Assembly: GCA_051117555.1 (NCBI GenBank)
Contig: JBNPEG010000107.1
Location: 1-31,793 of the forward strand
Origin: Elainellaceae cyanobacterium
GTDB taxonomy: Bacteria > Cyanobacteriota > Cyanobacteriia > CAZCXK01
DNA: 31,793 nt
Direction: 5' to 3'
Below the pieces are notes generated by a model. It did no database searches. It was given only the letters and a program-made list of their open reading frames with translations, and was not told where the DNA came from. Below are positions 4,705 through 31,185 of this stretch, piece after piece; the stretch's first letter is position 1, and each line of letters begins with the position of its first letter. The translations under genes and the position numbers were made by a program.

Positions 4705-4727
4705 CGACGGCTCCTTTAAGACGTGGG

Positions 4728-6278
<1,551 letters not shown>

Positions 6279-6606
6279 CTAAAGAATCAGCTAAGGAATG
6301 ATGCCCGCTCCGCGCTATTCCAGACCCATTATGTATTAAGGAATGCTCCAGGTTTTGAAATAGACACGATTTCACTCATTAACCTATCTATGATTAAAGG
6401 CTGTTATCTCCCGTTCAGCATCTTCCGTTTGAAAGAAACTGGAGAGCGACCTGTAACGCACTGCATCTCTGATAGCGAAACCGTCCCTGTGATTCATAGT
6501 GACCGCATTCGATTTTCTGAGACAGAACTTGCCTATTTTTAGCAGCTAGGCTTCGATGAAATTAGACGAACATCGTTCCTCAATCGTGGGCGAGATGTCG
6601 TTAAAC

Positions 6607-6747
6607 TCAGAGTCGAATATCAGAGTCGAATATCAGTGCAGTCCGACTTTTTCAACTACCCTTTTATAATCACGACTTTATAATGACGACATGGCGGTTG
6701 TGGATGGATATTCGAAGATGGATATTCGAAGATGGATATTCGAAGAT
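6607..6747. repeat. Cluster of three short tandem duplications
   Basis: TCAGAGTCGAATA x2 (6607-6632), TTTATAATSACGAC x2 (6663-6690), GATGGATATTCGAA x3 (6703-6744). Confidence 0.9.
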
Positions 6748-6798
6748 TCCATCACGGCTGAATCCAATCGCTTGTATGCGACTACGCTAGGACTTTCT

Positions 6799-8250
6799 AT
6801 GACGGCAACTTCTCAAAATCCCCAGTTCACTCCAACCAAACCAGCTTGGGCAAAGGCGATCGCCCAGCCTGCTCAAGAGTTTCCCTTGACCCAACTGCCC
6901 ATTCTCTCTGGCAGCATTCCCGATGCATTACGAGGAACCCTTTATCGCAACGGGCCGGCGCGATTGGAACGAGGCGGAGAAAAGGTAGGACATTGGTTTG
7001 ATGGGGACGGCGCAATTCTGGCGATTCATATCACCGATGACGGGGCAACCGGAACCTATCGCTATGTGAGAACGGATGGTTTCATAGCAGAAGAGGCTGA
7101 AAACAAATTCTTGTATGCAGGCTATGGAATGACTCCGCCGGGGCTCATTTGGGAACGGTGGGGCAAATCTGCCAAAAATACTGCCAATACGTCTGTCATG
7201 GCGCTGCCCGATAAACTATTGGCACTGTGGGAAGGTGGGAATCCCCACGCGCTCGATCGCCATTCGCTGCAAACGCTGGGGCGTGATGATTTGGAGGGCG
7301 CACTTGAGGGCGATCGCGCGTTTTCTGCTCATCCCAAACGTGATCCCATGACTGGAGAATTTTATAACTTTGGCCTCACTCCGGGGCTCAACGCCACGCT
7401 TAATCTATATCGGGGGGACGCCACGGGCACTATTTTTCAGACATCCACCATTCAGCTTGATGGATTGCCCCTCGTCCACGATTTTGTGATGGCGGGTCGC
7501 TATCTGGTGTTTTGTGTGCCTCCGGTGCAAATTAATTTGCTACCCGTCGCCATTGGCATTCAAAGCTTTAGTGACTCTATGCAGTGGGAGCCTGACCGAG
7601 GCACTGAGATCCTTGTGGTGGATCGAGAAACCCTTGGAGTTGTCAGCCGTGAAACAGTCGATCCGTGGTATCAGTGGCATTTTGCCAATGGCTTTGTCGA
7701 TCGCGACGGTTCAATCATAGTAGATGTGGTTCGCTATGCCGATTTCAAGACCAACCAATATCTCAAAGAAGTTGCCACGGGCGAAACCCACACGCCTGCA
7801 AAGGCAACGTTGTGGAGACTGCGAATCGACCCTCAATCTGGGCACATTAACGCTCACGATGAGGTCATTAATCGGAGCTGCGAATTTCCAGAAATCAAGC
7901 CCCATCAGCTAGGGCAGGCAAGCGATTCGCTTTATCTATCCGTTCACAGTGCTGGTGCAGATATTGCCAAAGACGTTTTGGGAGCGATCGCCCACGTCGA
8001 TCTATCCACAGGAGACCTTACGGAAGCCGATCCGGGCGAAAATCGCTATCCGTCGGAGCCGATTTATGCGGCTCATCCCGACAATCCTGACCAGGGATGG
8101 ATTTTGACCGTCGTCTTTGATGGCACTACCGAATCTAGCGAAGTCTGGATTTATGACGCAGACGGGCTCGATCGCGATCCTATCTGTCGATTGGGGTTGC
8201 CAAGTATTATTCCGCTCAGCTTTCATGGCACCTGGGCACCGCAGGGATAG
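6799..8250 (+). CDS. Carotenoid oxygenase / RPE65 family dioxygenase
   Basis: LRGTLYRNGP, HWFDGDG and four candidate iron-binding His (SAHPK, VHDF, WHFAN, SFHGTW); ATG 6799 after AGGA preferred over 6691, which reads through tandem repeats. Confidence 0.93.
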   Translation: MTATSQNPQFTPTKPAWAKAIAQPAQEFPLTQLPILSGSIPDALRGTLYRNGPARLERGGEKVGHWFDGDGAILAIHITDDGATGTYRYVRTDGFIAEEAENKFLYAGYGMTPPGLIWERWGKSAKNTANTSVMALPDKLLALWEGGNPHALDRHSLQTLGRDDLEGALEGDRAFSAHPKRDPMTGEFYNFGLTPGLNATLNLYRGDATGTIFQTSTIQLDGLPLVHDFVMAGRYLVFCVPPVQINLLPVAIGIQSFSDSMQWEPDRGTEILVVDRETLGVVSRETVDPWYQWHFANGFVDRDGSIIVDVVRYADFKTNQYLKEVATGETHTPAKATLWRLRIDPQSGHINAHDEVINRSCEFPEIKPHQLGQASDSLYLSVHSAGADIAKDVLGAIAHVDLSTGDLTEADPGENRYPSEPIYAAHPDNPDQGWILTVVFDGTTESSEVWIYDADGLDRDPICRLGLPSIIPLSFHGTWAPQG

Positions 8251-8513
8251 ATAGTGTTCCGGTTGAGCGGCAGACAGTCACCCTTTCCAGTAATGCTGAA
8301 ACTTCTGCCGACATACCTTGACATGTAAGCGCTAGATTTAACTGAGGGAGAGCATCTGGAACACCGAAGGCATCAAATCCTTCTGTAAAATTGAATCGCT
8401 GAGCGTCAAGCATTTTGCGTCGACTGATCCGATTCTAGACGTTGAGCAAGTTTGTGAGCAGCTTCGTGTGAGTCCAAAGGCGACCACAGCCCTAGCTCAC
8501 GGACGTAATACCT

Positions 8514-9485
8514 TTAATGGGATGTTCGGCGGCGATCGCCAACGCCGTGTATTCTCATCAAATCTGCAACCGTTTCACAATAGGGGGATAACCCCAACCG
8601 AGATGGGTTCACTGGACTTTCATAGGTGAAATGGCGATAGCTCAATGAGAATCGATCCCAGGGTGCCATCTGAATGCGAAACAGGATGATGAATAGGTCT
8701 GCAAGCTGAGGAAATAGAGGAATGCGAAGAAAGGTCGATTTGTTGAGATACAAAGAAATCTCTCGAATTGCCTGATTAACGGTCAACGCTGGATTGCCTA
8801 ACACTAGCTTGCGGGGCTGATCGGCAGCAGGCGGATGCTCCACCAAATAGCCAATCACCTGAGCAATGTCATAGGCATGAATGAAATGAAAGCTCCCATC
8901 GGTTCTGAAGAAGCGAATCAGATTCATGTGTTTGATCAGATCAGCAAACCCCGCTGAGAGAAACGAGTAGGGCTTTTTCCCATCTCCACCAAACACCAAT
9001 GTCGGAAAAACGGTCGTGATGCGAGGGGCGATCGCCACCTTCGACAAATTTTGATGGCAGATAAACTTGGTGCGAATATAGTCAGTCCCTAATTCACCGG
9101 CTGCTTTGAGGGGCTGGTTGTCATGGCCTAAAATGCTAGCCGTTGAGAAATAAATCACCTGCTGACAGGTTTCTAAATCGAGTAGATTCAGAAGTTCTAG
9201 GGTTTTAACCACGTTGACATCATAGGTTTCAATCGGGTCGCCCCATGCCGCCGCCGTCAAGATCGCCGTGTTAATGGTCTTGAGCAAGTCTGTGTATTTA
9301 TGAATCTGCTTCAGGTTGCCCTGCAACACATGAATCCCCGGACGTGCATCACAATCGACCTTGAGCTTTTCTGGATTGCGGACTAGTAGAAACAGTTCAT
9401 GGTCGGTCTGCTCAATCAACTGAGAGACGATGTAATGGCCAATGCAGCCACTTGCACCGGTGATGAAAATTTGCTGAGAAGTCAT
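8514..9485 (-). CDS. NAD-dependent epimerase/dehydratase family protein
   Basis: ITGASGCIG Rossmann motif, YIRTK (YxxxK); directly downstream of hemE. Confidence 0.88.
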   Translation of the reverse strand: MTSQQIFITGASGCIGHYIVSQLIEQTDHELFLLVRNPEKLKVDCDARPGIHVLQGNLKQIHKYTDLLKTINTAILTAAAWGDPIETYDVNVVKTLELLNLLDLETCQQVIYFSTASILGHDNQPLKAAGELGTDYIRTKFICHQNLSKVAIAPRITTVFPTLVFGGDGKKPYSFLSAGFADLIKHMNLIRFFRTDGSFHFIHAYDIAQVIGYLVEHPPAADQPRKLVLGNPALTVNQAIREISLYLNKSTFLRIPLFPQLADLFIILFRIQMAPWDRFSLSYRHFTYESPVNPSRLGLSPYCETVADLMRIHGVGDRRRTSH

Positions 9486-9551
9486 GCGTAGCAGTGTAAA
9501 CGGTATCTGTAGCGCCCATCCGAAAACTCGCTAGAGTGTTTGGATAGGTTC

Positions 9552-10616
9552 TTAACGGGTTGGCGTTAATAGCTGATCGGCTTGCTTCGCCGTCTCGAAG
9601 AAGTACCTGACGTTATCTTCAGGCGTATCTTTTAACACCCCATGCCCCAAATTGAGAATGTGTCCTCGGTTGCCCGCCTTTTGAATCGTATCCAGGATGC
9701 GATCGCGAATAAATTCTCGCGAACCATATAAAACACCCGGATCAAGATTTCCTTGCACCTTCATGTCATAGCCCAAGCGCTGCCGGGCATCTGCCATATC
9801 AACTGTCCAGTCGACGCTGATGATATCGACCCCCGACTTGACCATGCGCTCTAGCAAACCCGCACTGCCACTCACCAACAGGATGAGAGGCGTATCAGGA
9901 TGGGTCGCTTTCACCTGCTGCACGACTTGCTGCTGATACGGAAGGGCAAAGATTTCATAATCTTGAGGGCTGAGCTGCCCTGCCCACGAATCAAACAGTT
10001 GCACCACTTGAGCCCCTGAATCAATTTGGTAGCGAACATAGGTGGCGATTGAGTTGGCTAACTGCTCTAAGAGCCGATGAAGTAGAGACGGCTCTGTGAA
10101 CGCCATATTTTTGATGACGGAGTATGTTTTAGACCCTTTCCCTTCAACCGCATAGGCTGCCAGCGTCCAAGGCGCACCCACAAACCCCAACACGGTCGAT
10201 TCATTGCCTACTTCTTGTCTGAGTGCCTGCAAAATCTCTTGAATAAAGGGTAACGATTCGACTGGATTGAGGGGATGCAGCGCGTCAATTTGCGCGCGGC
10301 TGCGAATCGGGTCATGAATGATCGGCCCCTTACCCTCAGCGATGTCCATGTCGATGCCCATCCCAGGAAGGGGCGTCACGATATCCGAAAACAAAATCAC
10401 ACCGTCAGGACGAAACGCCCGCCAGGGCTGTAGCGATACCTCAATGGCGACGTCTGGAATTTCAGAGCGTTCACGAAACGACGGATACTTTTCCCGCAGA
10501 TCCCGATATGCTTTCATGTAGCGCCCCGCTTGTCGCATCATCCAAACAGGAGGACGATCCAACGCTTCGCCACGAGCCGCTCTGAGTAAGTAGGGAATCT
10601 GGGATGATTCGGCCAT
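9552..10616 (-). CDS. hemE: Uroporphyrinogen decarboxylase
   Basis: [34 protein letters not shown]. Confidence 0.97.
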
Positions 10617-10741
10617 TGTGTAAACTTCCTGTTAAATGTCTTTTTAAGCCCATTTGTTAGCTTAGCACTCTGCGATCGCCCTTTTTCGCAGGGGTTTTTT
10701 AAGAAAATTGACTAAACTCATAGCTCACCATGGAAGACACA

Positions 10742-11650
10742 CTAAAGGACGTCACACACAGTTTTCAAGGTTTGCCGGAGCCATTGGTTTGCTTGATCTG
10801 AGTCTGTCAGCTTACTCCACATCATCGATATCGACCACGGTTCAGTTTGAATTGGCAGCTCAAAGACTTGGATATCCTGCCGGGGTGCAAGGTGCGCCGC
10901 GATTCGAGAGGGAATGGCAGTAATTAAATCGGTCGCTGCCACCAAAGATGGCAGCACCAACATATAGGGCGTTGTCACCGCAATACGCCGCTGCAAGCCG
11001 TAGTTCGCCAGAATGTGATCGATATATCCGGTTTCATCACGTCGGATCGTCACTAGAGCGTGAGAAAGACTGGCAAACGTTCCCAGCGACAGTGTTCCAT
11101 TGGCGATCGCCGGATGTTCGGTTCTGGCAATGCCAACAAATCTTTCTTGAAACAGCGACTCTTGCAAAGTCTGCCGGGGTGGAGTTTGAAACACACCCAA
11201 CGCCAGGTCAATGTCACCCTGTTCAAGCAAGTCTCCAACACTATCCTTCTCAAACCCAATTAGCCTTATGTCAATAGCTGGGGCGGCTCTTTGGCAAAAC
11301 GCTAGCAGCTTGGGGATCACAACACAACTTGCGTAGTCGGAACTGCCAATTGCAATCCGTCGCGGGGTGGTCGCGGGGTCAAACGTTTGGCTCGACGCAA
11401 TCGTGTGACGAATTTGCTGGAGTGCCTGCGAAATTCCAAGAGCAATCTGTAGGGCTTTGGCAGTCGGCTGCATTTCGCGCCCAATGCGGATAAAAAGCTC
11501 ATCGTCAAACAACGTCCTCAATCGCCCCAATGCCGCACTCATAGCGGGCTGCCCTACATAAAGTCGCTGGGCTGCCCCGGTTACGCTACGTTCTTCCATG
11601 AGCGCCTCAAACGCCACGAGAAGATTGAGATCAATTGACGATAAATCCAT
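10742..11650 (-). CDS. LysR-family transcriptional regulator
   Basis: DLNLLVAFEAL..ERSVTGAA..QPAMSAALGRLR HTH, divergent from the SDR operon. Confidence 0.95.
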   Translation of the reverse strand: MDLSSIDLNLLVAFEALMEERSVTGAAQRLYVGQPAMSAALGRLRTLFDDELFIRIGREMQPTAKALQIALGISQALQQIRHTIASSQTFDPATTPRRIAIGSSDYASCVVIPKLLAFCQRAAPAIDIRLIGFEKDSVGDLLEQGDIDLALGVFQTPPRQTLQESLFQERFVGIARTEHPAIANGTLSLGTFASLSHALVTIRRDETGYIDHILANYGLQRRIAVTTPYMLVLPSLVAATDLITAIPSRIAAHLAPRQDIQVFELPIQTEPWSISMMWSKLTDSDQANQWLRQTLKTVCDVL

Positions 11651-11910: not shown

Positions 11911-12660
11911 ATGGCACTCCAGAAAAAGATTGCGGTTGTTTCGGGAAGTAATCGCGGGCTAGGTTACGCAATTTCACAAAAACTGGCTCAGCAGGATGAT
12001 ATTCGCGTTGTTTTGACGAGCCGTAATCCAGCAGAGGGGCATGCAACCCAGCAGCAACTCGCGAATGACGGGCTCGACGTTGACTATCACATCCTGGATG
12101 TCTCAAGTGATGACAGCGTTCAGCAATTAGCTGACTGGCTCCGCAGCACTTATGGCAAGGTAGATATCTTGGTGAATAATGCGGGAGTTAATCCGACGCG
12201 CCAGCCTGACGAAGCAAGCCTATTGACGGCTCAACTAGCAATCCTGTCATCAACCTTTGAGATGAATGTAGTGGCGATCGCCCGCATGGTTCAATCCATG
12301 ATTCCCCTAATGAAACCTCAAAATTATGGGCGTATCGTCAACGTGTCTACCGAGATGGCCTCTCTTTCATCTATTCCTAGAGATTTCTATCCGCTCGCGC
12401 CATCCTATCGACTTTCAAAGGTCGGTGTGAATGCGCTCACCGTCCTTTTGGCAAAAGAATTGCAGGACACTAATATTCTCATTAATGCTTATTCGCCAGG
12501 ATGGATGAAGACTGATATGGGCGGTGAGAACGCACCATTTACTGCTGAAGAAGGAGCCGAAACAGCTGTCTATTTGGCGACGCTTCCCGACGGTGGACCT
12601 CAAGGGCAGTTTTTTGGAGAAATGCGAAAGTTCGGAGGACTAGTTCAATTGCTTTGGTAG
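11911..12660 (+). CDS. Short-chain dehydrogenase/reductase (carbonyl reductase-like)
   Basis: SGSNRGLG, LVNNAG, YRLSK, SPGWMKTDMGG; ATG at 11911 preferred. Confidence 0.93.
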   Translation: MALQKKIAVVSGSNRGLGYAISQKLAQQDDIRVVLTSRNPAEGHATQQQLANDGLDVDYHILDVSSDDSVQQLADWLRSTYGKVDILVNNAGVNPTRQPDEASLLTAQLAILSSTFEMNVVAIARMVQSMIPLMKPQNYGRIVNVSTEMASLSSIPRDFYPLAPSYRLSKVGVNALTVLLAKELQDTNILINAYSPGWMKTDMGGENAPFTAEEGAETAVYLATLPDGGPQGQFFGEMRKFGGLVQLLW

Positions 12661-12685
12661 TTAATCTGTCATTAGGAGAATAGAC

Positions 12686-13336
12686 ATGAATATCGGCATT
12701 ATCGGCACTGGAAGCGTTGGCGGTACCTTAGGACGAATTCTCGCACGTTGTGGACATTCAGTGACATTTGGCACTCGAGATCCCCAAAATGAGAAAGTTC
12801 AATCCTTGCTTGCTACGATTAATGGAACTGCTGACGCGACGGACATCGCTACAGCTGTAGCTTCCAGCGAGGTTGTTATTTTGGCGATTCCCTGGAATGC
12901 AACTCAAGAGGCGATCGCCTCAGCAGGCGATCTCAGCGGAAAAATTCTCATCGATGCGACAAACCCGATCGAGATGACCCCTGAAGGATTGGCAAAGGGC
13001 TTGCTCACCGGACATACCACGTCTGCTGCTGAAGAGCTTGCTCAACTAGCTCCAGGTGCAGTTGTTATAAAAGCTTTTAATACGATTGGTGCAAGCCAGT
13101 TTGAGACACCACTCTTCGGCACAATTCGGGCAACCGGATTCATCTGCGGAGATGATTTAGATGCAAAGCAGGTCGTTGCAAGTTTGGTCGAAGAGGTTGG
13201 CTTTGATGTCTTAGATGTCGGAAATCTGAGTCAAGCACGCTTACTTGAACCGTTAGGAATGACGTGGATTCATCTTGCATTCTTGAGAGGTCTGGGACAA
13301 GAATTTGCTGTGACAGTGATTAAACGACCCAATTAG
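12686..13336 (+). CDS. NADPH-dependent F420 reductase family oxidoreductase
   Basis: IGIIGTGSVG, IDATNP, VIKAFNTI, CGDD..AK; AGGAG RBS. Confidence 0.88.
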   Translation: MNIGIIGTGSVGGTLGRILARCGHSVTFGTRDPQNEKVQSLLATINGTADATDIATAVASSEVVILAIPWNATQEAIASAGDLSGKILIDATNPIEMTPEGLAKGLLTGHTTSAAEELAQLAPGAVVIKAFNTIGASQFETPLFGTIRATGFICGDDLDAKQVVASLVEEVGFDVLDVGNLSQARLLEPLGMTWIHLAFLRGLGQEFAVTVIKRPN

Positions 13337-13363
13337 AACAAATACAGAAGTAGGGACACTTTG

Positions 13364-13444
13364 ATGAACATCGGCATTATCGGCAGCGGAAATATGGGGC
13401 GATCGCTCGGTACGGTGTGGGCAGAATCGACGTTATCCATCTAA
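13364..13444 (+). pseudogene. Truncated N-terminus of a second F420-reductase-like oxidoreductase
   Basis: MNIGIIGSGNMGRSLGTVWAE, then runs into the 3' end of ureB and stops. Confidence 0.7.
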
Positions 13445-13744
13445 AGAGCCATTGATTTTGGCATTAAGCCCATAGACCTGACGACTCCCCGCCAACGGCA
13501 CCAGCGTCACCTCTCGCTCGTCGCCCGGTTCAAAGCGCAGCGCATTGCCCGCCGGAATATCCAACCGCATTCCCCTTGCCTGTTCTCGATCGAATGATAG
13601 GGCTTCATTCACTTCATAAAAGTGAAAATGAGAGCCGACCTGAATGGGGCGATCGCCCGTATTAGCAACGACCATCGTTACCGTCGTGCGTCCGGCATTG
13701 AGTTCGATCTCACCGGCTTCTGGAATCATTTCACCTGGAATCAT
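13433..13744 (-). CDS. ureB: Urease beta subunit
   Basis: [32 protein letters not shown]. Confidence 0.97.
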
Positions 13745-13804
13745 CGAGTCTCTCCTTTCATCAACTCATCTCATCAACTCATCAATCAAATCAACGACCT
13801 AAAC

Positions 13805-14395
13805 CTAGATAAACTGATCCGTCAGTTCGGGATAAATTCGCCTAAACGTATCAGGATAATCAATCACCACCCCATCTTCATCAACGGGCAACTCGGCTGT
13901 AAACTCCCGAAATATGCCGTCGTAGCGATGTAGCCCTCCTGTTTCATCGTGCTTTAAGCAGGTATATCGCTGCGGAACTGGTCTAATTTGCATCGCAGGG
14001 ATGGCAATGTACACTGCCCTGATGTTTTTAGACTCCCCCGGCTGAAGCGCGAGGCGGCGAATGGCGAGCGAATTGGTGAAGGGCGTCGCTGAAATATCGA
14101 CCTCAAAACAGCCCTGCAACCCATAAATCGATTGCCCGACCCGATTGATCCAATTCCCTGCACCATCCGTTTCAAGCTGAATCAGGTGCGTATCGCTATG
14201 CAATAGCTCTAGCTTTGCAAAATGCATTTTCCAGGCGCGATCGCACCGAATCTCATAGGCAAGCTGAAACGGCACGCCATCTTTGGCTCCAATGACTACG
14301 CTCTGAGCCCGAATCTGATCGCCTCGCTGAATCAGATGCAATGACTCCAAGCCTAGCCCGTTCCAGGGCTTCCAAAAGATTTGTCGATCGATCAT
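13805..14395 (-). CDS. Putative glycolipid-binding domain family protein
   Basis: GLESL, VDISATPFTNSLAIRRL, QRYT, LPVDEDGVVIDYP motifs. Confidence 0.75.
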   Translation of the reverse strand: MIDRQIFWKPWNGLGLESLHLIQRGDQIRAQSVVIGAKDGVPFQLAYEIRCDRAWKMHFAKLELLHSDTHLIQLETDGAGNWINRVGQSIYGLQGCFEVDISATPFTNSLAIRRLALQPGESKNIRAVYIAIPAMQIRPVPQRYTCLKHDETGGLHRYDGIFREFTAELPVDEDGVVIDYPDTFRRIYPELTDQFI

Positions 14396-14401
14396 GGATA
14401 G

Positions 14402-14704
14402 CTAGCGAATGGGATCGTGAACCGTCACGAGCTTGGTTCCATCTGGGAACGTGGCTTCAACCTGCACTTCGTCCAGCATTTCAGCAATGCCGTCCATCAC
14501 ATCATCTCGCGACAGCAAGGTGGCACCAAAACTCATCAAGTCTGCCACCGTGCGCCCCTCTCTCGCTCCTTCTAAAATGGCAGCAGAAATATAGGCGATC
14601 GCCTCCGGGTAGTTGAGCTTTAATCCTTTATCTTTGCGGCGCTCGGCAAGCAACGCAGCGGTAAAAATCATGAGTTTATCTTTTTCTTGGGGAGAGAGTT
14701 GCAT
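14402..14704 (-). CDS. ureA: Urease gamma subunit
   Basis: [36 protein letters not shown]. Confidence 0.98.
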
Positions 14705-16026
14705 AGGCGTGTTCGAGAAGGGTCACTCCAAATTAGAGACATCAACGTCAACAGCGGAAGAAGATATAGATAGATTGCAAAGGGGATAAACCTAGCATCG
14801 GTCATGAGAACAGTCGCCGGAACAAATCCGGCAATATTCCAGGGTATCAGGGGGGCGATAACAACAACAGTATTTTCAAGATCTAATGCAAGCTGATCGT
14901 GACCCCGCTCGGTTTTGTGATAGGTCGGCTCAGCCAATTGTTGGGTCAACAAAATGGCAATGGTTTGACTACAGCCGACGATTGCAGACAACGTTCCCAC
15001 GAGGGTGGTGTTCAAAAACCGCCGGCTCGGTGACGAACAGCGGCTCAAATAGGTCTCAAGCTGAGCTAATATTCGTGTGCCTGATAGCACCCCAGCGATC
15101 GCCGTTGAGAGGATGACCACGATGCAAACCGGCACCATCGACCGCACACCGCCGCCCACAAAAATCGACTGGAGTGGCGATGAGTCAGGCAGCTCAAACC
15201 CAAACACCGCAAACCGGATTACCTCCGCGATCGAGTAATCTTGAATCACCAGGGCGATCGCCCCGCCGACCAGCAGGCTCGCCATCATCGACCTTTTCAC
15301 CTCAACCCGAACCAGCGCCAATCCCAAAATTACTCCTGCGGGCACTACCACCCAACCTTGTATGTCAAAACTCTGTTGAATATCGTCCGTCAGCGTCGAT
15401 TGAATCGCGTGAGCCGGATTAATCAGTGACAATAAAAAATAAATCATACCCGATAATGCCAGCGGCAGAACAGACGTTTTAGCCATATTTTTGAGATTGG
15501 CATACACATCGGTTTGAGTAAGGCTGGCAATCAGGTTTGCACTAGACGACATCGGAGAACAGCGATCGCCCACATAGGCTCCCGCAATAATCGCGCCCGC
15601 CGCCCAGTGGGGATGCACTCCCCCCGCATTCGCCAAGATCATCAGCGCAATCCCGATCGTGCCTACCGTTCCAAACGAGGTGCCTAGCACGATCGAAACG
15701 AGACTCGTCAGCGCAAACGCAGATAGAATAAAGAACTGAGGATGAATGGCTTGGACGCCATAAAACACCAGCGCCGGAACCGTTCCCGATGCCATCCAGA
15801 CTGAAATGACCATGCCGATCAGCAGCAAGATTTGCAGCACTGACCCTGCTTTTTGGCTTCCCAGAACTGCCATTTTAAGAAGTACCGAAAACGGCATCCC
15901 CTGACGACGCAGCACGATGAGCAGCAGGGCAAGTGACGCAAACAGCGGATAGCCAATGAAATATCCCTGCTGAACGCTGATGAATAGGAGAACAAATGAC
16001 GCGGATAATGCAATGATGACATCCAT
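14668..16026 (-). CDS. NhaC-family Na+/H+ antiporter-like transporter
   Basis: Multi-[41 protein letters not shown]. Confidence 0.85.
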
Positions 16027-16253
16027 CGGGGATTGGGTCTGTGATTTAGGGAGGATGCATAAGACTACTGAGTCGTTGAGTAGGCTGTTTATTTTTCTAA
16101 ACGTGTAGCCTAAAGGCTTTTACATTGACTCATCAATGACTTAAATAGACAACTCCCATTAATAAAATTGATGGATCAATCATTCAATACGCCCTATGCG
16201 ATCGCACCGAAGTAATACCAATTCTTCAAATTCAGACTACCCAACTCATAACT

Positions 16254-16457
16254 CTAATCAGCAATGTCCATTCGTCCAGCAGAAAAAATTGCGTCTACTC
16301 GGAGCTGCAAGTTTGGAAACATCATCGGTTGTTTAGGTTTGCCGATGTATTCTCTACCACCAAGCCCCAGATAATCTGTAATCCAATGCCCTGGTACACC
16401 CATCGATGCTAACTGCGAGTAGATGGCTCCAGATAAACTAGAGTCTAGAAAAGCCAT
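16254..16457 (-). pseudogene. Uma2-family endonuclease remnant
   Basis: MGVPGHWITDYLGLGGREYIGKPKQP joined directly to FPNLQL..DAIF; N-terminal half and an internal segment missing. Confidence 0.7.
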
Positions 16458-17041: not shown

Positions 17042-17167
17042 ATACTATAAACGTTTGGAAATTCAGAACACTCCCATGATTAACTTCAAAATAACGATAA
17101 GATCTGTAAATTAGATCTAGACATTAAATCTAGAGAATTGGTATCGCGCGATCGCGGATTGTTCGAG

Positions 17168-17214
17168 AGTCCGCGTAGGCGCACATTGTTCGTATAGTCG
17201 CGGTTTCAACCGCC
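17168..17214. repeat. Small palindromic dispersed repeat
   Basis: Two short imperfect hairpins (GTCCGC..GCGCAC; GCGGTT..AACCGC); resembles repeats I recall from filamentous cyanobacteria, single copy here. Confidence 0.4.
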
Positions 17215-17245
17215 AGACTTGAGTTTGGCAATGATTGAGGAGGTT

Positions 17246-17497
17246 GTCGATCTAGAAAACGAGCCGTCGAATGCAGCAAATGAGAGCATCGATCTAGAAA
17301 ACGAGCCCTCGAATATAGAAAATGAGCCCTCGACTATAGAAAACGAAGCCTCGACTATAGAAACTGAAGCCTCGACTATAGCAAATGAGCCCTCGACTAT
17401 AGAAAACGAAGCGCCGACTATAGCAAATGAGCCCTCGAATATAGAAAACGAAGCGCCGACTATAGAAAACGGAGCCTCGACTATAGAAACCGAAGCC
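17246..17497 (+). repeat. 21-bp tandem array, 12 units, open frame encoding acidic heptads (STIENEA/P)
   Basis: Heptads VDLENEP to STIETEA counted from the translation; ORF 17231-17518 possible. Confidence 0.92.
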
Positions 17498-17627
17498 GTG
17501 TTAACGAAGTCGCTTTAAACAGGGGCGATCGCCCCCCATAACCAAACCTTGTAACAAATTTGACTTGCCTGGATGCGCTAAATCGAGTAAATTTTTGAGC
17601 TAAGGCTGTGTGTGTGCAGCTTGTTTG

Positions 17628-17815
17628 TCCCAAAATTTGGTCGAACGCCACTGGAAGGTGAGCCAACACCAACCAGCGGCTGACCCCCTCAACAGATCAC
17701 GCCTGTCTCGGAGGCTGAGTAAGATTTTACTCGTGGCCGTCCCGAACTGCACATGTTTAGGGCGGCTAAATTTTGGGATTCCTTTCCTATCGTTTCATTG
17801 GAGGAATCCCTCATC
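17628..17815 (+). ncRNA. Putative structured cis-regulatory leader, copy A
   Basis: Closing IR TCCCAAAATTT/AAATTTTGGGA; hairpin GCCACTGG-AA-GGTG-N6-CACC-AA-CCAGCGGC then TGACCCC; GCCGTCC/GGGCGGC hairpin; anti-SD stem GGGATTCCT/AGGAATCCC. Confidence 0.65.
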
Positions 17816-18121
17816 ATGTGTTTCACCAATCCAGATCCTCAGCTATTTGAAAACGCTGAGGATCTCAATCTCGTGCCGGTTGCAAATCCCCCTGAACCCG
17901 AGCGGGAGCGCCTACGCCATGATCATCGGCTCACCCGACGGCGTGCGTTGGTGAAGCCGCTCCCTTTGGGAGTATCGGTGATTAATCGATTGCATGTGCT
18001 CCAGTATGCAGAGCAGTCAACCTGGAGTCGGTTGATTAAGATTCCGGAGGGGGGTGTTGTGATTACGCCCGACCAAGGTGCGGTGTTGAGTTATCTGCTG
18101 CGCTATCGGCAGTTGGGGTAA
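17816..18121 (+). CDS. Small protein of unknown function, paralog of 30761-30997, locally frameshifted
   Basis: GGAGG RBS; LxYAExxxWS motif shared with 30761-30997. Confidence 0.75.
   Translation: MCFTNPDPQLFENAEDLNLVPVANPPEPERERLRHDHRLTRRRALVKPLPLGVSVINRLHVLQYAEQSTWSRLIKIPEGGVVITPDQGAVLSYLLRYRQLG
17948..17973. mobile_element. 26-bp SDR-like mini-insertion in a HIP1-like site
   Basis: GCG|TTGGTGAAGCCGCTCCCTTTGGGAGT|ATCGG, with an internal CTCCC/GGGAG hairpin; removal restores GCGATCGG and the paralog alignment. Confidence 0.7.
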
Positions 18122-18124
18122 GAA

Positions 18125-18191
18125 GTGTTTGGGGTGGGCGATGCCCACCCTCGGTTGAGGTGGTGTTTGGGGTGGGCGATGCCCACCCTAC
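18125..18191. repeat. Two direct copies of a REP-like palindrome
   Basis: GTGTTTGGGGTGGGCGATGCCCACCCT at 18125 and 18163; second copy ends in CTAC (GTAG on the minus strand). Confidence 0.85.
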
Positions 18192-18373
18192 GGGGCTTAG
18201 ACAAAAGGCTGAGGGAGAGTTGATTCGTTATATATCTCTTGGAATGCTGCAATTCTAGCGAGATTGCTGTGTGGAAACTTTATACTGATTATGCAGAAGC
18301 ACATTAAAATCGTTCGTAATAAAATTAATCTTTCACGCACATCAACATCGCTTTTTCCTTGAGTAAATAAGCA

Positions 18374-19408
18374 ATGGCACGGGCAGATCTATTAAAAAAA
18401 CTTCTGAAAAGTCATCAAAAACATGATGATTGGGCTTTTCGTGAGGCTGCCGAGGAAATCATTGCCGAGGAAAGGAAAAAGCATCATATTATCCTGGCAA
18501 ATGAGTTGGAGCGGATTTTGAAAAATGGTAATGGTCACTTGAATTATGGACAGATACAAAGTCTCACACAACTAGACTCCGTCCCTAAAGATATTGAAAA
18601 GGGAGTGGCGCTGCTTGAAACCAAATGGACAAACCGTTTTCTAGAGGATCTGATCTTAAGTCAAGAAATTCGGAACGCACTTGAAAGGATGATGCGTGAG
18701 TTTCGAGAATGGGAAGTTTTGGAAGCTAATGGGCTGCTACCTACTCGTCGTGTTCTGTTCTGTGGTCCTTCTGGCTGTGGGAAGACAGCAGCAGCCGAAG
18801 CCATAGCAGCAGAATTAGGATTGCCGCTACTTTATGTTCGCTTTGATGCAGTCGTTTCTTCACTACTGGGTGAAACTGCTGCCAATCTTCGCAGAGTGTT
18901 TGATTATGCTCAACGTGGGCAGTGGGTGATGTTTTTTGATGAGTTTGACGCAATCGGCCGATCGCGTGACGATCCTACAGAGCATAGTGAGATCAAGCGA
19001 GTTGTCAATTCATACTTGCAAATTGTTGATAATTTTAGCGGTCGATCTCTTATCATTGCAGCAACGAATTTTGAGCAAGCACTTGATCCGGCAGCTTGGA
19101 GAAGATTTGATGATGTCATTCGTTTTGAAAAGCCTACAAATGAGCAGATTCGGAGGCTCGTTGGCAAACGATTAGTCCCATTGAGATTTAATAACACTCA
19201 GGTGGCTGAGATAGTAAAGAAGCTATCAGAGTCTACATATGCAGATGCGGAACGAGTGTGTTTAGATATCCGTAAATCATGCGCTATTCAGGGTACTCGA
19301 CAAGTCAAAAAAGAAGATGTTGAAGAAGCCCTTTCACGACACGCTTATCGTCAGGCTATCTTGGAAAGAGCTTGCGGCAATCCTATGCCGAAGATTGATC
19401 AAGATTAA
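18374..19408 (+). CDS. AAA+ ATPase, IetA-like
   Basis: GPSGCGKT Walker A, FFDEFD Walker B, AATN, LDPAAWRRFD; IIAEERKKHH..LANELE N-terminus. Confidence 0.9.
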   Translation: MARADLLKKLLKSHQKHDDWAFREAAEEIIAEERKKHHIILANELERILKNGNGHLNYGQIQSLTQLDSVPKDIEKGVALLETKWTNRFLEDLILSQEIRNALERMMREFREWEVLEANGLLPTRRVLFCGPSGCGKTAAAEAIAAELGLPLLYVRFDAVVSSLLGETAANLRRVFDYAQRGQWVMFFDEFDAIGRSRDDPTEHSEIKRVVNSYLQIVDNFSGRSLIIAATNFEQALDPAAWRRFDDVIRFEKPTNEQIRRLVGKRLVPLRFNNTQVAEIVKKLSESTYADAERVCLDIRKSCAIQGTRQVKKEDVEEALSRHAYRQAILERACGNPMPKIDQD

Positions 19409-19413
19409 TCATT

Positions 19414-21903
19414 ATGCCTCCATCTCAGCCTGAATCTGATCGATATATACACATCACTTTCACTCGTGAACCGAAGAAGCGATTTGATGACCGGAAAACT
19501 CGACCAAATCTTGGTGCGCCAAAAGCTCCTATCCGAGAAGATCGTCATCAACATGCTCAAGAAATTTCACAAGGTATTACGCAGGCAACACAGCAAATAT
19601 CACAAGCCCGAAAAGGCTATGGCATAGATCCTGAACAGCTTCTTGTTTTGGAATTCAATAGCACCAATATCAACCTGCGAGAAACCTTCGAGCGTTTTGG
19701 TGCGTGGGTTGTTAGTGAGTTTAAGGATAAAGTAGCTGATCAAGATCACTATCGTTTGCTTGTTCAATTTCCAACCGAAACTTCGCGTCAGCTTTTATCG
19801 GATGAGAATCGTCTTTACGACATAGGGGCAACTGAGAATACAGTTTTGGCTCCTGTAATGAGACAGAACTTCTTTGCCGCATTAGAATCAGTAAGCTCAG
19901 TATCACGTGAGGAAAGGATTGGAGTTCGTCTACGGGAGGAAGGTTTCCCTGATGCGGAGTCTTTTTATCTTGATGTAGATCTTTGGCATCCCGGAGATCA
20001 AGATTCTGTTCGCAAGGTGTTGGGTGATATTCGCTCAATGTGTGCCAGTTATGATGGACAGCTAACTGAAGAGGTGCGAACTTCTAGTTTGCTACTGGTC
20101 AAAGTTCGCGGTTCGCGGCAGTTAGCAGAGGCTTTGCTGGAGTTAGACTGGGTTGCTCGTGTTGATCTTCCTCCTAAATTATCACGCGCTTATTCCGAGA
20201 TATTTGGAGATGTGAAACCACCTGATCCAATGCCAGTTCCTTCAAACGAAGATCCGATAGTATGTGTCATAGACAGTGGAGTAGTTTCAGGACATCCTTT
20301 TCTAACCAATTGGGTTGTTGAAGAACGAGATTTCGACACAGGAGAAGATACTTCAACTGATCTAAACGGACATGGAACGTCTGTTGCTGGTTTGGTCGTC
20401 TACGGTGACATTGCTAGTTGTTTAGAAAGCAATCAGTGGCAACCCAGAGTTCGGATTTGTAGTGCTAAAGTGCTTTGCCATGATCCTGCGTGGGGACCTG
20501 TTATTCCAGAACACCACCGTGCTGAAGGGTTAATCGAGCAAGCTATCCGAGACTTCGTCAAAGAACGACAATGCCAAGTCTTTAATCTTTCTATTGCCAA
20601 CCCACAAGAAGTTTATCGGGGTGGACGACAGTTCCCGTGGGCAGAAAAACTCGACGAGCTAGCCAGAGAATGGGATGTTGTGATTGTTCAGATTGCTGGT
20701 AATTGCGAACCCCTGATATCAGAGGATGTGACTACGAGAGAGGAATTTCAGAAGGCTGTTCGAGACAGCTTACTGAAAGATGAAAATCTCAGAATTTGTA
20801 ATCCTGGTACAGCTGCTCTTACCATCACAGTTGGTGCCTTGGCTAGATCAGATGCTCTTGGAGATCACGTAAAAACTACAGGTGTTCGCTTGAAAGATGC
20901 GTTTCCAGGTGCGCCAGCTCATGCTCCTGCACCTTTTACCAGAGTGGGGTGGGGGCTTGCTTATGGTGGTAATAACACAGCAGTTAAACCCGATGTTGTT
21001 GCTTATGGAGGAAACTGGGCAATTCAAACTATTGCAGGTGGAAGCCCCAAGTGGAAGCCTTTTATCTTTCTAGGGGAACCAACCATCCAAATAGAAGACA
21101 GTAGTCGGTTTATCACGGCAAGAGATGGCACTTCTTTTGCTTGTCCTCACGTTGCTCATGCTGCTGCGATCGCTGCATCCAGTCTAAAAACAACCCTTGG
21201 ACGAAGACCATCTGCTAATTTGATTCGTGCTTTAGTAGGTAGCGCGACCTATCCACCGCCGTGTCCTCCAGGTTGGTTAGGCAACGAGAAAGACACGCTG
21301 CGTCTCATCGGCTATGGAATGTGTTCTGTCGATGATTTAACAGCATCCAAGAAAAACCGGGTTCGTTTGATTGCCATGGATGAAGTCGAGTTGGATAAGC
21401 TTCATATCTATCGAGTTGCAGTTCCTGAAATCTTTCTTACAACAAAGGGAAAAAGGGGTATTACAGTTGCACTTGCTTACGATCCGCCTATTCGTGCCAG
21501 TCGCAAAGAGTATCTTGCAAATACAATGTGGGTTGAAGCATTACATGGTTTAACCACAGAAGAAGTTGAAATCTATCGAGCAAAGAATACTGCTTCTGAT
21601 GTAGATACTCTTCCGTCTAAATATCAATTAGAGTTGCGTCCTACAAAAACGGATGTTCGATGGTCAACATTACAGGTTAGAAGATTAAAAAAACAGTCTA
21701 AATTGAAAATACCTGCTGGTGAAACAGAGGCAGTAGTTCATTTTGTGGTTGGCTGTCAGCACAGATTTCCTACGGGTTTTGACTACAAACAGAGGTATGG
21801 CTTAGTTGTTCTTTTTTGGCACGAATCAGAACAGATAGAGCTATACCAGGAGTTACGAGTGAGGGATAGAGTGCGTATGAAATCGGCTCGTGTTCGGGCT
21901 TAG
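19414..21903 (+). CDS. S8 subtilisin-like serine protease, IetS-like
   Basis: Catalytic triad motifs VIDSG, NGHGTSVAG, GTSFACP; VKPDVVAYGGN, LAYDPP; 5 bp downstream of the ATPase; no signal peptide. Confidence 0.9.
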   Translation: MPPSQPESDRYIHITFTREPKKRFDDRKTRPNLGAPKAPIREDRHQHAQEISQGITQATQQISQARKGYGIDPEQLLVLEFNSTNINLRETFERFGAWVVSEFKDKVADQDHYRLLVQFPTETSRQLLSDENRLYDIGATENTVLAPVMRQNFFAALESVSSVSREERIGVRLREEGFPDAESFYLDVDLWHPGDQDSVRKVLGDIRSMCASYDGQLTEEVRTSSLLLVKVRGSRQLAEALLELDWVARVDLPPKLSRAYSEIFGDVKPPDPMPVPSNEDPIVCVIDSGVVSGHPFLTNWVVEERDFDTGEDTSTDLNGHGTSVAGLVVYGDIASCLESNQWQPRVRICSAKVLCHDPAWGPVIPEHHRAEGLIEQAIRDFVKERQCQVFNLSIANPQEVYRGGRQFPWAEKLDELAREWDVVIVQIAGNCEPLISEDVTTREEFQKAVRDSLLKDENLRICNPGTAALTITVGALARSDALGDHVKTTGVRLKDAFPGAPAHAPAPFTRVGWGLAYGGNNTAVKPDVVAYGGNWAIQTIAGGSPKWKPFIFLGEPTIQIEDSSRFITARDGTSFACPHVAHAAAIAASSLKTTLGRRPSANLIRALVGSATYPPPCPPGWLGNEKDTLRLIGYGMCSVDDLTASKKNRVRLIAMDEVELDKLHIYRVAVPEIFLTTKGKRGITVALAYDPPIRASRKEYLANTMWVEALHGLTTEEVEIYRAKNTASDVDTLPSKYQLELRPTKTDVRWSTLQVRRLKKQSKLKIPAGETEAVVHFVVGCQHRFPTGFDYKQRYGLVVLFWHESEQIELYQELRVRDRVRMKSARVRA

Positions 21904-22001
21904 ATACTCAGGTTTATTGAATCTAATTTTTTCGATAGAAATTTGGGTAGATGAAGTCACATATTCTTTAGTTCCCTCTAATTCCGAGTAATAGGTGAAA
22001 A

Positions 22002-22250
22002 ATGGTTACAACATTCAACAAACCGTCCTCACTGATTCACGAAATTCAGCTCGAAAAAGTCGGTGACTGGAGTTTATTTAAATTTAGTGAATCTCTCCAA
22101 CTTCGAATGGAGAGCCTTCTAGAGAAAAAGAAAGCTGATCAGCTAACTCCCGACGAACTCTCTGAACTCGATGCGATCGGGGAGCTAGACCGCATTTTTA
22201 CTCACATCAACGCCATGGCTGCTCAACATGCCAGCCGAGTATCACCATAA
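22002..22250 (+). CDS. Small hypothetical protein (antitoxin-like)
   Basis: AGGTG RBS; LQLRMESLLEKKKADQLTPDELSELD helical pattern. Confidence 0.6.
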   Translation: MVTTFNKPSSLIHEIQLEKVGDWSLFKFSESLQLRMESLLEKKKADQLTPDELSELDAIGELDRIFTHINAMAAQHASRVSP

Positions 22251-22385
22251 CATCAGGATCAATTGAAGATATCAATACTACAGAGCGATACTATAGAGCG
22301 ATCGCCCCGTGGTATCGCCCCGTTCAGAAAACCTCAACTAAAATCCGTCGAGACCGATTCAGATGCAAAGTATGTGTCAAGAGGT

Positions 22386-22949
22386 CTATAACTTTAGCCA
22401 ACTAAACACATCACCGACAGTCAGTTGCAACTCAGAAACTAAACTAGGAACTGGTAAAACCTCTTGTGCATCTTGCAGCAATTCAGGTTGTTGTCCGGTG
22501 GGGTAGATGAGAAGCGATCGCTCCTTTGGATCAATCAACCACCCCATCTGACATCCTTGGTTCAAACAATGCAGAATATTTCCAGTTACTTTGGTGGGGC
22601 TTTGTTCTGGAGATAGGATTTCAATTGTCCAGTCAGGGCACATTGGAAAGCTATTGGCAATGTCTCCACGATCGTCAACTGGAATTCGATCCCAAGCAAA
22701 TATGGAAACATCAGGAACGAGCGATCGCCCACCAAACGTACACCTTAATTCTGGGAACGCTAGCGCAATTTTTCGATCCTCCACGACTTGATTAATGGCT
22801 GTGACCAGTTTCCCCTGTAATTTGCTGTGCTTCCCTTGCGGCATCGGCTTCTGAACCACCTTCCCGTGGATATATTCACTGGCGGGCTTTGTTTCGGGTA
22901 GCGTCAGAAACTCCTCCAGCGTAATTGTTCTTTCAGGGACTTGCACCAT
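22386..22949 (-). CDS. Uma2-family (DUF820) endonuclease
   Basis: LEEFL.LPETKPASEY, KPMPQGKHS, VPDVS, PDWTIEILSP, GWLIDP; start moved to ATG 22949. Confidence 0.92.
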   Translation of the reverse strand: MVQVPERTITLEEFLTLPETKPASEYIHGKVVQKPMPQGKHSKLQGKLVTAINQVVEDRKIALAFPELRCTFGGRSLVPDVSIFAWDRIPVDDRGDIANSFPMCPDWTIEILSPEQSPTKVTGNILHCLNQGCQMGWLIDPKERSLLIYPTGQQPELLQDAQEVLPVPSLVSELQLTVGDVFSWLKL

Positions 22950-23136
22950 AAAACTTTTTCCCTTGCTAAGGTCAACACAGCAAAGTAAGAAGGGCACCCC
23001 CCACCTGCTGATGAGTTTTGCCTATTTTAACTTGACTGATTCGATCCAAAGTTGTGGATTAGGTTGGTGCGATCGCCCGTTATTCTTTAACTGCGTATTA
23101 AGATTAAAATGACCCTCTATTGATTGGTCAACAACG

Positions 23137-24330
23137 ATGAAAATAAAGCGCGGTTTGGTCATCACCAGCATCCTGCTAGCCACTACAGCCGGACTAGGAA
23201 GCGGGGTTTCATCCACCGTTAATGCTCAGACCAATTGCACTATTAACCGGGGGCGAGCCAGCACCCTCACCTGCGCCAGAATTTACCGCATCGTCCAAAC
23301 CGTGCGACTATTCACTCGGGGCGGCAGAACATTACGCCTCACCCCTGCGGATCAGACCGTCATACTTCCAGAGGAACGCCTTCAAACCTTGTCAGGTTCT
23401 AGAGCCGAGCTTCAGTTCAACGATGGCTCTCTCGCCTGGACCCGAGCCGGAACCGTATTTGAATTTGCTCCTCGGCAGCGCATCATTCAACTGGGTAACG
23501 GTGCCATATTAGTTGTCACCGAGCGAGGAGCACCACCGATTCGGGTGAGTACGGCAGAAGCAAACATCATTCCTCGGGGGTCTGCCTATGTAGTTCAGCG
23601 GAACGAAGCCACTGAAACCACCGATGTCTTTGCGTTGACAGAAAATCCAGACGGGTTGCTGACGGTATCCAGCTCAGTTGAGGGAGACGAATCGGTCGAG
23701 TTGGAAGCTGGAGAAACCGTCACCGCCGACGAAACCGGACTCAGCGCCGTCGAAGAGTTTGATTTAGAACTGTTTTATTCAACCAATCCGATCGTTGCCG
23801 GACTAGGCCCCAATCAAGAAACCGTCGTATCGCAAAAGCCAGCCTCTGTTCAGCAAACGCTGAATTCGGTCCGGGTAGAAACCTTAGCGGCAGTCGACGC
23901 TCAAACTGCCGGATTTCGCAGAACGTTTCTCCGCACTGCGCTGACGGGAGCGGATATGGATTTAGACCTAGACGTGCGACTGCGGGACGACATTGAAGAC
24001 GTGACAGAGGAGTTGTCTGGACGGTATGAGCTAGATGATGATTTTGATCGAGACGACATTACTGGATTTATAACGTTTGAGCCATTTGATGATGTTGGCA
24101 GCGTCGAGTTTGAGTTTCAGGACGGCGAACTCTTAAGCATTGACGGACAAGCGATTCAGAATATTCGAGTCTCATCGTTTGGGCTGAGTGGCGACAGCGC
24201 CAGAGGCACCATTGTCTTAGACAACGGTGAGGCCATTCGGATTGAAGTCTTCGGGATCGGGGGCAATTTTGACGAAGATGATGAGGTGCTCCCCGGCAAT
24301 CTGATTCGAGGGACGGTTCCCGATCGCTAG
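23137..24330 (+). CDS. Exported FecR-domain protein with acidic C-terminal region
   Basis: Signal peptide (..VNA-Q), LQTLSGSRAELQFNDGS, IRVSTAEANIIPRGS. Confidence 0.75.
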   Translation: MKIKRGLVITSILLATTAGLGSGVSSTVNAQTNCTINRGRASTLTCARIYRIVQTVRLFTRGGRTLRLTPADQTVILPEERLQTLSGSRAELQFNDGSLAWTRAGTVFEFAPRQRIIQLGNGAILVVTERGAPPIRVSTAEANIIPRGSAYVVQRNEATETTDVFALTENPDGLLTVSSSVEGDESVELEAGETVTADETGLSAVEEFDLELFYSTNPIVAGLGPNQETVVSQKPASVQQTLNSVRVETLAAVDAQTAGFRRTFLRTALTGADMDLDLDVRLRDDIEDVTEELSGRYELDDDFDRDDITGFITFEPFDDVGSVEFEFQDGELLSIDGQAIQNIRVSSFGLSGDSARGTIVLDNGEAIRIEVFGIGGNFDEDDEVLPGNLIRGTVPDR

Positions 24331-29985: not shown

Positions 29986-30005
29986 GTCTAACAATGTTAT
30001 TAGAC
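29986..30005 (-). other. Probable attI site
   Basis: Minus strand GTCTAATAACATT-GTTAGAC: GTTRRRY core with an inverted degenerate L box, about 190 bp upstream of divergent intI. Confidence 0.7.
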
Positions 30006-30143
30006 AGAAAGTTTCCGTATATTGTCCTCAGGGGGGTAGATATGCGGAAACTTTCTGCACATCTACCTCGATTGGCTAGATCGCAAGAAACTTTCCACAT
30101 ATTATCCCGATCCAGGTAGATCGCAAGAAACTTTCCACATATT
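30001..30143. repeat. Four 40-bp-phased repeats with palindromic core GAAASTTTC
   Basis: Cores start at 30007, 30047, 30087, 30127; last two units share 27 identical bp. Confidence 0.9.
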
Positions 30144-30190
30144 TTCAGGTATAGTACATGTAGTCTACTGAGTTGCATTTGCTACATGTC

Positions 30191-30454
30191 ATGCCAGTTT
30201 TACCTGAACATTCTACGGGGCCAAAGCCCAAGAAGCTTTTAGACCAGGTTCGCGAGGTGATGCGCTTAAAGCATTATGCTTATCGCACCGAAGAAACTTA
30301 ATCCATTGGATAAAGCGATACATTCTGTTCCATCACAAACGACATCCTAGAGATATGGGATGTGTTGAGATTGAGGCATTCCTAGACGACGATGATTTAT
30401 ACCCATGTACTCAATCGGGGTGGCAGGGGAGTTCGAAGTCCGTTGGATGGGTGA
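30191..30454 (+). pseudogene. intI: Integron integrase, frameshifted and internally deleted
   Basis: KLLDQVREVMRLKHYAYRTEET / IHWIKRYILFHHKRHPRDMG..EIEAFL fused to TTMIYTHVLNRGGRGVRSPLDG*. Confidence 0.92.
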
Positions 30455-30539: not shown

Positions 30540-30570
30540 TCTTTCACGAATACACTATTCTTTGCCATTA

Positions 30571-31085: not shown

Positions 31086-31185
31086 GTATTCCTTAATTAC
31101 ACAAAATCTTGAATGCTCTCATGCCTGTCTTTCTGGGGGCTGATCAGTCTCTCCAGGGTGGTCTACTCAACCTGCAAAGTGTTAT

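Follow-up and report, generated by a model that had tools for sequence, protein, structure and literature searches.

Upstream of a small gene that recurs throughout the genome of this cyanobacterium we found a five-helix RNA leader which, with moderate confidence, we read from its predicted pairings as a cis-acting translational switch for its own small gene, not as a regulator of the IetAS defence pair encoded behind it. As modelled here, the module would consist of a conserved upstream block, a ~165-nt five-helix 5' leader, and a gene of 70-100 aa. The window, that is, the whole 31,793-nt stretch analyzed from the present genome (G000, 6.06 Mb), carries two modules on the + strand: copy A (17622-18121), with its leader at 17622-17782 and a small ORF at 17816-18121 (101 aa, a type-A member), and copy B (30566-30997), with its leader at 30566-30736 and a small ORF at 30761-30997 (78 aa, a type-B member). 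The initial annotation had held that the two copies share one leader fold and lie in the same orientation near the two ends of an accessory island, and both points were borne out: a covariance model built from type-B leaders only matches copy A end to end, and the copies, both on the + strand, are ~12.8-12.9 kb apart. If our reading holds, a large structured class of cis-regulatory RNA would be tied to an equally unnamed family of small proteins.

The leader of copy A is closed by P1, in which TCCCAAAATTTGGTCG (17628-17643) pairs with CGGCTAAATTTTGGGA (17763-17778) over 16 positions, including two G-T wobbles. On the same strand follow P2 (17647-17680, loop 17661-17666), the junction CTGACCCCC (17680-17688), P3 (17692-17706), P4 (17713-17738), and P5, formed by GGCCGTCCC (17735-17743) with GGGCGGC (17760-17766). 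An anti-SD hairpin (17775-17810), with GGGATTCC (17775-17782) paired to GGAATCCC (17803-17810), masks the 3' half of the SD sequence GGAGGA (17800-17805), and the ATG start codon stands at 17816. The P1 3' strand has CGGC in common with the P5 hairpin and GGGA in common with the anti-SD stem, so the competition of the closing stem with both, proposed when this locus was initially annotated, is real. The extension of that stem by wobble pairs, proposed alongside, stood only in part; the pairing can form, but it is one of two alternatives, because in the unconstrained fold of 17625-17822 the partner of GGUCG is UGACC of the junction instead of CGGCU. A 211-nt stretch over the copy A leader folds at -73.8 kcal/mol (z -3.6), with 0 of 200 shuffles equally stable, and the region upstream of the copy B gene likewise folds beyond chance in a shuffle test (z -3.5). 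Immediately upstream of the copy A leader lies a conserved block (17540-17621, + strand) with a small GCTG/CAGC hairpin at 17605-17620; it is kept among the six type-A copies, is near-identical in the orthologue of a same-genus genome (G002), and is a putative promoter. A strict consensus scan returned no sigma-70 promoter upstream of copy A or copy B and no relevant terminator near either copy, and a search for tRNA and tmRNA genes found none. Among the RNA runs searched, none contained 17400-18400.

The fold is a family trait. Model R1, a covariance model made from 16 type-B leaders of the present genome only, matched copy A at 17622-17782 from the first to the last model position (41.3 bits, E 6e-9) and also matched four other type-A leaders, while R2, a wider covariance model, scored copy A at 92.4 bits. 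The leaders share one architecture: P1 closes the domain; the P2 hairpin, interrupted by an internal loop, has a variable apical loop; the P3 hairpin also has a variable loop; the CTRACCCC junction between these two hairpins is conserved; and P4 and P5 (GCCRTCC/GGRYGGC) complete the fold. In a plain MAFFT alignment of the genome's own 16 type-B copies, onto which the structure was drawn by hand, 88.2% of cells paired versus 37-41% when the partners were slid, and compensatory changes occurred in 16 pairs versus 3-7 in the slid controls. Two larger alignments were fitted to the model and are hence biased toward the structure: with type-A leaders and other genomes added (34 sequences), 90.3% of cells paired (37-41% slid) and 35 of 43 pairs were compensatory (11-17 slid), and with 42 distinct sequences from many families, 87.9% of cells paired (37-42% slid), 38 of 43 pairs had changes on both sides (17-25 slid), and none of 500 shuffles reached the score. 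The secondary structure is thus conserved and backed by compensatory changes, as is characteristic of riboswitch-like cis-regulatory leaders.

A structured 5' leader with SD sequestration is a known kind of element; this particular family was absent from Rfam 15 and from the literature searched, which yielded no description of either the leader RNA or the small-protein family. Across the whole window Rfam 15 gave no match at gathering score, and around either copy its E-value mode returned chance-level matches only (E 0.33-9.6). R2 recovered 23 leaders in the present genome (17 type B and 6 type A), where tblastn with both small ORFs found 18 type-B and 7 type-A loci. Each of the four genomes in the GTDB order has the leader (23, 28, 8, and 4 copies). 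Across an evenly drawn sample of the class, limited to genomes with a completeness of 90% or more and to matches at E<=1e-4, it occurred in 41 of 151 cyanobacterial genomes, which cluster in certain families (f9, 9/11; f11, 8/10; f15, 6/10; f17, 10/10); carriers often had at least 10 copies and many genomes at least 18. Upstream of the ORF at 35 loci of Nodosilinea, Halomicronema, and similar lineages, R2 found no match at E<=0.1, the sole hit in those loci being a weak one on the opposite strand elsewhere in L068. Those of the loci that were inspected have a different hairpin upstream of the ORF.

How the leader would meet the ribosome-binding site differs between the two types. In type A, the P1 3' strand ends in GGGA, and the anti-SD strand begins with these same four bases; in type B it is GCGCTCC, where P1 ends, that pairs with GGAGCGY of the ribosome-binding site. 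For 31 of 33 leaders from the present and other genomes, two being dropped as their start was not assignable, we computed how strongly the SD region pairs with the P1 3' end extended by 12 nt. True partners averaged -12.7 kcal/mol, versus -9.45 for partners swapped between loci and -7.4 for shuffles (p 5e-4 and 2e-9), so the complementarity is specific to the locus. Compensatory variants can be seen, such as GGGAUUCC:GGAAUCCC, UCUGGUUUCC:GGAGACCAGA, and, in other genomes, GGGUUUCC:GGAAACCC and GGGAUUUCU:AGAAAUCUC; the weak duplexes were those of L015 (-5.4 kcal/mol) and of L147 and L058 (both -5.9 kcal/mol). For copy A the two states are isoenergetic (-71.2 kcal/mol with P1 closed, -71.1 with the anti-SD helix), and for copy B they are 3.9 kcal/mol apart (-69.8 P1-closed versus -65.9 anti-SD). 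The two pairings are thus predicted to exclude each other, in the manner of an expression platform, with an overlap with P1 that is not universal: in some lineages the anti-SD strand does no more than adjoin P1, or a mimic of the P1 5' strand takes its place. Two type-B leaders, L005 and L007 (contigs C95 and C219), have a ~120-nt insertion between P1 and the SD that opens with GGCAGAA/GGCAAAA heptamer repeats and parts the leader from the ribosome-binding site.

We infer a transcript start upstream of the leader and, from these pairings, the following direction of switching. When P1 and the four inner hairpins are formed, the anti-SD nucleotides would be held in or beside P1 and the ribosome-binding site would be free; when P1 is open, the anti-SD helix would form and translation would be blocked. 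A factor that stabilizes the five-helix core would then turn the gene ON, and the trigger that we favor as a candidate is a small molecule or ion, which would bind where the junction and the P4 loop are invariant. Translational riboswitches such as the add-type adenine-sensing ON switches are 5' leaders that sequester the SD sequence. The present leader resembles them in its multi-helix, aptamer-like domain closed by P1, in its strong covariation, in a P1 3' strand that competes with or abuts the helix covering the SD, and in lacking an intrinsic terminator. Unlike them, it has no Rfam match, its ligand is a candidate only, and two of its apical loops change faster than third codon positions; at least 20 leader copies per genome, all in front of one small-protein family, would moreover be unusual for metabolite riboswitches.

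Those two loops, at the tips of P2 and P3, are the most divergent of the regions compared, and the switch reading does not account for their rapid change. Measured by region over 10 closely related type-B pairs, divergence reached 45% in the P2 loop and 49% in the P3 loop, compared with 29% at third codon positions, 1.6% at paired positions, and 0.6% in the P4 loop. The copy B orthologues of G000 and G002 likewise differ mainly in P2, P3, and the P5 loop, whereas the copy A orthologues are identical there. Pairing of the P2 and P3 loops with the adjacent 21-nt array or with each other was considered and rejected, as no complementarity was seen by eye. If the switch reading is true, the leader would represent an orphan riboswitch-like class with many paralogues, hypervariable loops, and positions at the 3' flank of integron integrases and at sites of cargo exchange.

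The coding half of the module is equally constant in position. A family ORF stands behind 22 of the 23 leaders of the present genome, the 23rd leader lying at a contig end, and among 28 leaders fetched from other genomes the family ORF was recognized by pattern in 20, several of the remaining 8 showing it by eye. Across many filamentous cyanobacteria the leader thus holds a constant 5' UTR position before one gene family, as riboswitch-like leaders do. The copy A and copy B proteins are distantly related (34% identity, E 2e-4) and share the core LR..IGS...V...L..LGYAE..WS...P...GEVM.ILTR. A profile search gathered 728 cluster representatives at E<=1e-3, of which 244 reach E<=1e-10; most have 70-130 aa, with 70-100 aa typical of the proteins in leader modules. 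Neither protein had a match in Pfam, NCBIfam, or PADLOC, a Pfam search over 133 family members revealed no family common to them, and the protein atlas returned only unnamed cyanobacterial clusters. Among longer forms of the protein, 16 of 17 were without an informative Pfam domain. A single 580-aa case, P0185, joins a TIR domain and a WD40 fragment to a C-terminal small-protein domain and may be a read-through gene call.

The invariable pairing of RNA and protein also raises the prospect that the small protein binds the five-helix leader of its gene and so controls the translation of that gene, an autoregulatory scheme that we judge rather unlikely. AlphaFold modelled copy B as a compact beta-alpha-beta-beta core (residues 21-74, mean pLDDT 84), a confident prediction in keeping with that scheme, and RNA-binding folds such as those of KH domains and ribosomal proteins are among its structural neighbours, all of them weak (Z<=3.8). 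Searches against the PDB nonetheless gave no clear structural relative (Foldseek E>0.3; VIA-align wide Z<=3.8), the best PDB sequence profile match had E 0.31, and there was no significant fold or sequence match to an RNA-binding family. The modules on contigs C240, C203, and C187 encode identical proteins behind different P2 and P3 loops, which argues against these loops as protein-matched determinants, and a protein that stabilized P1 would be an activator, not the repressor more usual in feedback control. Autoregulatory ribosomal-protein leaders, of which the rpsF leader is an example (PMC3895269), offer the closest comparison here: in both systems a structured 5' UTR invariably precedes a gene whose small protein product could bind that UTR. 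Unlike those leaders, ours precedes a protein that is non-ribosomal, multicopy, and without a detectable RNA-binding family, and its loop variation is not matched by protein variation. The translational switch is still the reading that we favor, with a small molecule or ion as its candidate trigger.

In copy A itself the gene is damaged. Relative to its positional orthologue in G002, the ORF has lost 2 nt after 17919 and gained 26 nt at 17949-17974; this double frameshift is compensated, such that 17920-17974 is out of the family frame while the frame stays open, and the conserved LIIGSPDGVR is replaced by unrelated residues. The leader, in contrast, shows 3 differences in ~285 nt between G000 and G002 (99% identical), whereas the ORF is ~9% different. 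That the leader is near-invariant although the ORF is damaged hints at a role beyond controlling that ORF. The 26-nt insert was examined as a repeated hairpin element and discarded, since its core occurs once in the genome.

The initial annotation placed copy A directly in front of an ATPase-protease defence pair, and this pair can now be named. PADLOC identifies IetA, an AAA ATPase (18374-19408, + strand; E 1.7e-88), and IetS, an S8 peptidase (19414-21903, + strand; E 1.8e-101), so that both components of the anti-phage system IetAS match the genes downstream of copy A; the naming draws on PADLOC together with the NCBIfam models (IteA 3.2e-68, IteS 4.9e-27), whose scores were both below the curated cut-offs (NF042959, NF042956). 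The leader and small ORF might be taken for the first cistron of an IetA-IetS operon that they regulate. They lie on the same strand, the IetA start follows the stop of the small ORF by 252 nt, and no T-tailed terminator was found between them. The gap is, however, occupied by two tandem copies of a 27-nt repeat with the hairpin GGGTGGGCGATGCCCACCC (18125-18189, + strand), the copy A ORF is frameshifted, and no IetAS was found downstream of the other 21 copies examined or at 20 other module loci scanned; the adjacency is also not kept in G002, where IetAS lies elsewhere and on the opposite strand. We accordingly give the operon very little credence.

Comparison with G002 shows how this site varies. 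Contig C20 of that genome is syntenic with the window at 12000-16409, at 17146-18191 (the array and module A), and at 21988-23939. The 3.8-kb segment between the last two (18192-21987, + strand), which contains IetA and IetS, is missing there, and its slot is held by a convergent gene for a 1121-aa NNH2-NACHT-HEAT protein. G002 retains the 27-nt repeats, and it is exactly there that the swapped segment has its left edge; no att-like repeats were seen at the IetAS junctions. The interior from 23940 to the copy B orthologue also differs in G002, and the distance from A to B is ~12.8 kb in both genomes. G002 has a second, divergent IetAS pair elsewhere in the island; relative to the modules it is placed differently and runs on the opposite strand, and its neighbors are pentapeptide, IS200-like, and group II maturase (fragment) genes. 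Since the G002 slot holds the NACHT-HEAT gene and IetAS lies elsewhere, there appears to be no leader-IetAS coupling, and the leader module, unlike the IetAS system, is found at 22 other places of the present genome without IetAS. A role of the module as a conserved third component of IetAS is, as far as this comparison of genomes goes, not supported, and the link of the leader to IetAS is positional only. The same comparison supports the view that the copy A region is a cargo-swap site framed by two modules. A neighbouring IetAS should hence be taken with caution as a leader-regulated partner, and the leader could serve as a practical marker of variable islands in filamentous cyanobacteria.

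At the other end of the island the neighbor is an integron integrase. Using the intact intI of contig C211 as a tblastn query, we found a decayed copy at 30224-30451 (+ strand), of which residues 6-59 (frameshifted) and 286-322 are left, the middle being deleted; copy B starts 111 nt past it. The C211 gene is the sole intact intI in the present genome (TIGR02249, 466 bits against a cut-off of 265). All three intact intI genes of G000 and G002 are followed by a type-B module at ~115 nt, and remnants of intI precede two more modules in a related assembly. At 6 of 30 intI loci from the class sample, the intI 3' end had a leader no farther than 400 nt away, in one orientation or the other. The association between module and intI is strong. 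Cyanobacterial integrons are noted in Cury et al. 2016 (PMC4889954). Like integron platforms, the module is found beside TIGR02249 integrases, intact or decayed, and beside variable gene content; unlike them, it stands 3' of intI whichever way it is oriented, and an integrase is absent from the vicinity of most copies. A crude scan of both strands of the window (RYYYAAC...GTTRRRY core sites plus folding) returned no attC-like site. The module may mark variable regions and the 3' flanks of integron integrases, or it may be carried into them. A short way upstream of the decayed intI, at 29997-30168, are four AGAAACTTTCC(R)(Y)ATAT motifs in direct and inverted orientation, plus the palindrome GTATAGTACATGTAGTCTAC; they may be operator or integrase-binding sites, and the motif may resemble a LexA box.

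This position invites the proposal that the element acts as DNA, as a folded recombination site of attC or attI type for the neighbouring integrase. Its long closing stem, a structure kept more than its sequence, and its place at the intI 3' flank (6 of 30 loci; all 3 intact genes of G000 and G002) would suit such a site. We nevertheless regard it as very improbable, given that the crude scan of the window showed no attC-like site, that type-A P1 has no AAC/GTT core, and that five helices with invariant junctions are unlike attC. The homology among copies begins 60-110 nt upstream of P1, not within it, and G-U pairs, frequent in the stems (UG in 7 of 42 sequences at pair 11-199), would be A-C mismatches on the other strand.

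Modules are also concentrated in particular kinds of sequence. Of 23 copies in the present genome, 18 lie within 5 kb of a contig end (35% expected, p 3e-5), and 9 lie within 1 kb of arrays of period 21, 42, or 63 (2.9% expected, p 7e-9). In the window, a 21-nt array of ~12 units (17211-17504) lies directly upstream of copy A and another (31140-31496) downstream of copy B; by eye and on consensus units, the reverse complement of the latter unit agrees with the former at 13 of 21 positions. The family of the 31140-31496 array recurs in the same orientation behind the copies or fragments on C71, C86, and C111. Coding by these arrays is doubtful, because both strands are open. Genome-wide, period 21 (also 42 and 63) is the commonest tandem repeat; arrays of 80 nt or more number 74 and fall into several unit families. 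An array of the 21-nt type abuts each of the four ORF fragments that lack a leader (C23, C118, C86, and C111).

A selfish module, akin to a toxin-antitoxin or addiction system, would account for several of these features: its RNA would neutralize or gate a harmful small protein, and it would stabilize, or travel with, integron platforms and variable islands. The multicopy state (23, 28, 8, and 4 in the four genomes of the order), the position beside intI, the frequency of copies close to contig ends (18 of 23) and to tandem arrays (9 of 23), and the decayed copies (the ORFs of C28 and of copy A in the window, and the four leaderless fragments) all speak for it. It is nonetheless improbable, for PADLOC, Pfam, and NCBIfam show no toxin or antitoxin similarity, and the tandem arrays hold no fixed position relative to the ORF, unlike those of type III systems. 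Nor were terminal repeats or target duplications found at the copies, among which homology just fades at about -265 to -380 and +235 to +310. Comparably speculative, and in our estimate a long shot, is the proposal that the leader goes beyond cis-regulation and supplies the RNA part of an undescribed RNA-protein system, one that would seed or mark swappable islands as it travels with integron integrases; the 6-7-nt apical loops of P2 and P3, set on invariant stems, would be programmable elements for recognizing other nucleic acids. The translational switch for the small gene remains the reading that we prefer.

The initial proposal that the module is associated with defence islands or integration hotspots fared unevenly; the integron link and the cargo-swap site speak for it, but enrichment of defence genes was weak. 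Counting ORFs of at least 100 aa around module loci of the present genome, with both window copies left out, PADLOC matches at E<=1e-5 fell on 26 of 121 ORFs near 20 module loci versus 15 of 116 near 20 random loci, a weak excess (odds ratio 1.84, p 0.088). A stricter cut-off of E<=1e-20 gave 18 of 121 versus 9 of 116 (p 0.10), and counting by locus gave 15 of 20 versus 10 of 20 (p 0.19). These counts are no more than suggestive of defence-gene enrichment near modules. Single loci adjoin a type III-B CRISPR-Cas system (C21), AbiU (C136), PDC-S28 (C7), or PDC-M29 (C208), and beside the 22 copies examined there was no recurrent protein-coding neighbor family save open frames running through 21-nt arrays. 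At L121 (contig C21 of G000, 3969-11611), a type-A module and a 21-nt array lie beside Cas6, a WYL/Csx1 protein, and Cas10b.

Two further features of the window were recorded. Near the contig end, ~100 nt at 31539-31640 recur with 95-98% identity at more than 20 places in G002 and are probably a small dispersed repeat. On the minus strand, 140-6266 carries a complete operon for an N-type ATPase, AtpR and the gene-1 protein included, comprising genes for alpha, b/delta, c, a, AtpR, gene 1, epsilon, and beta.
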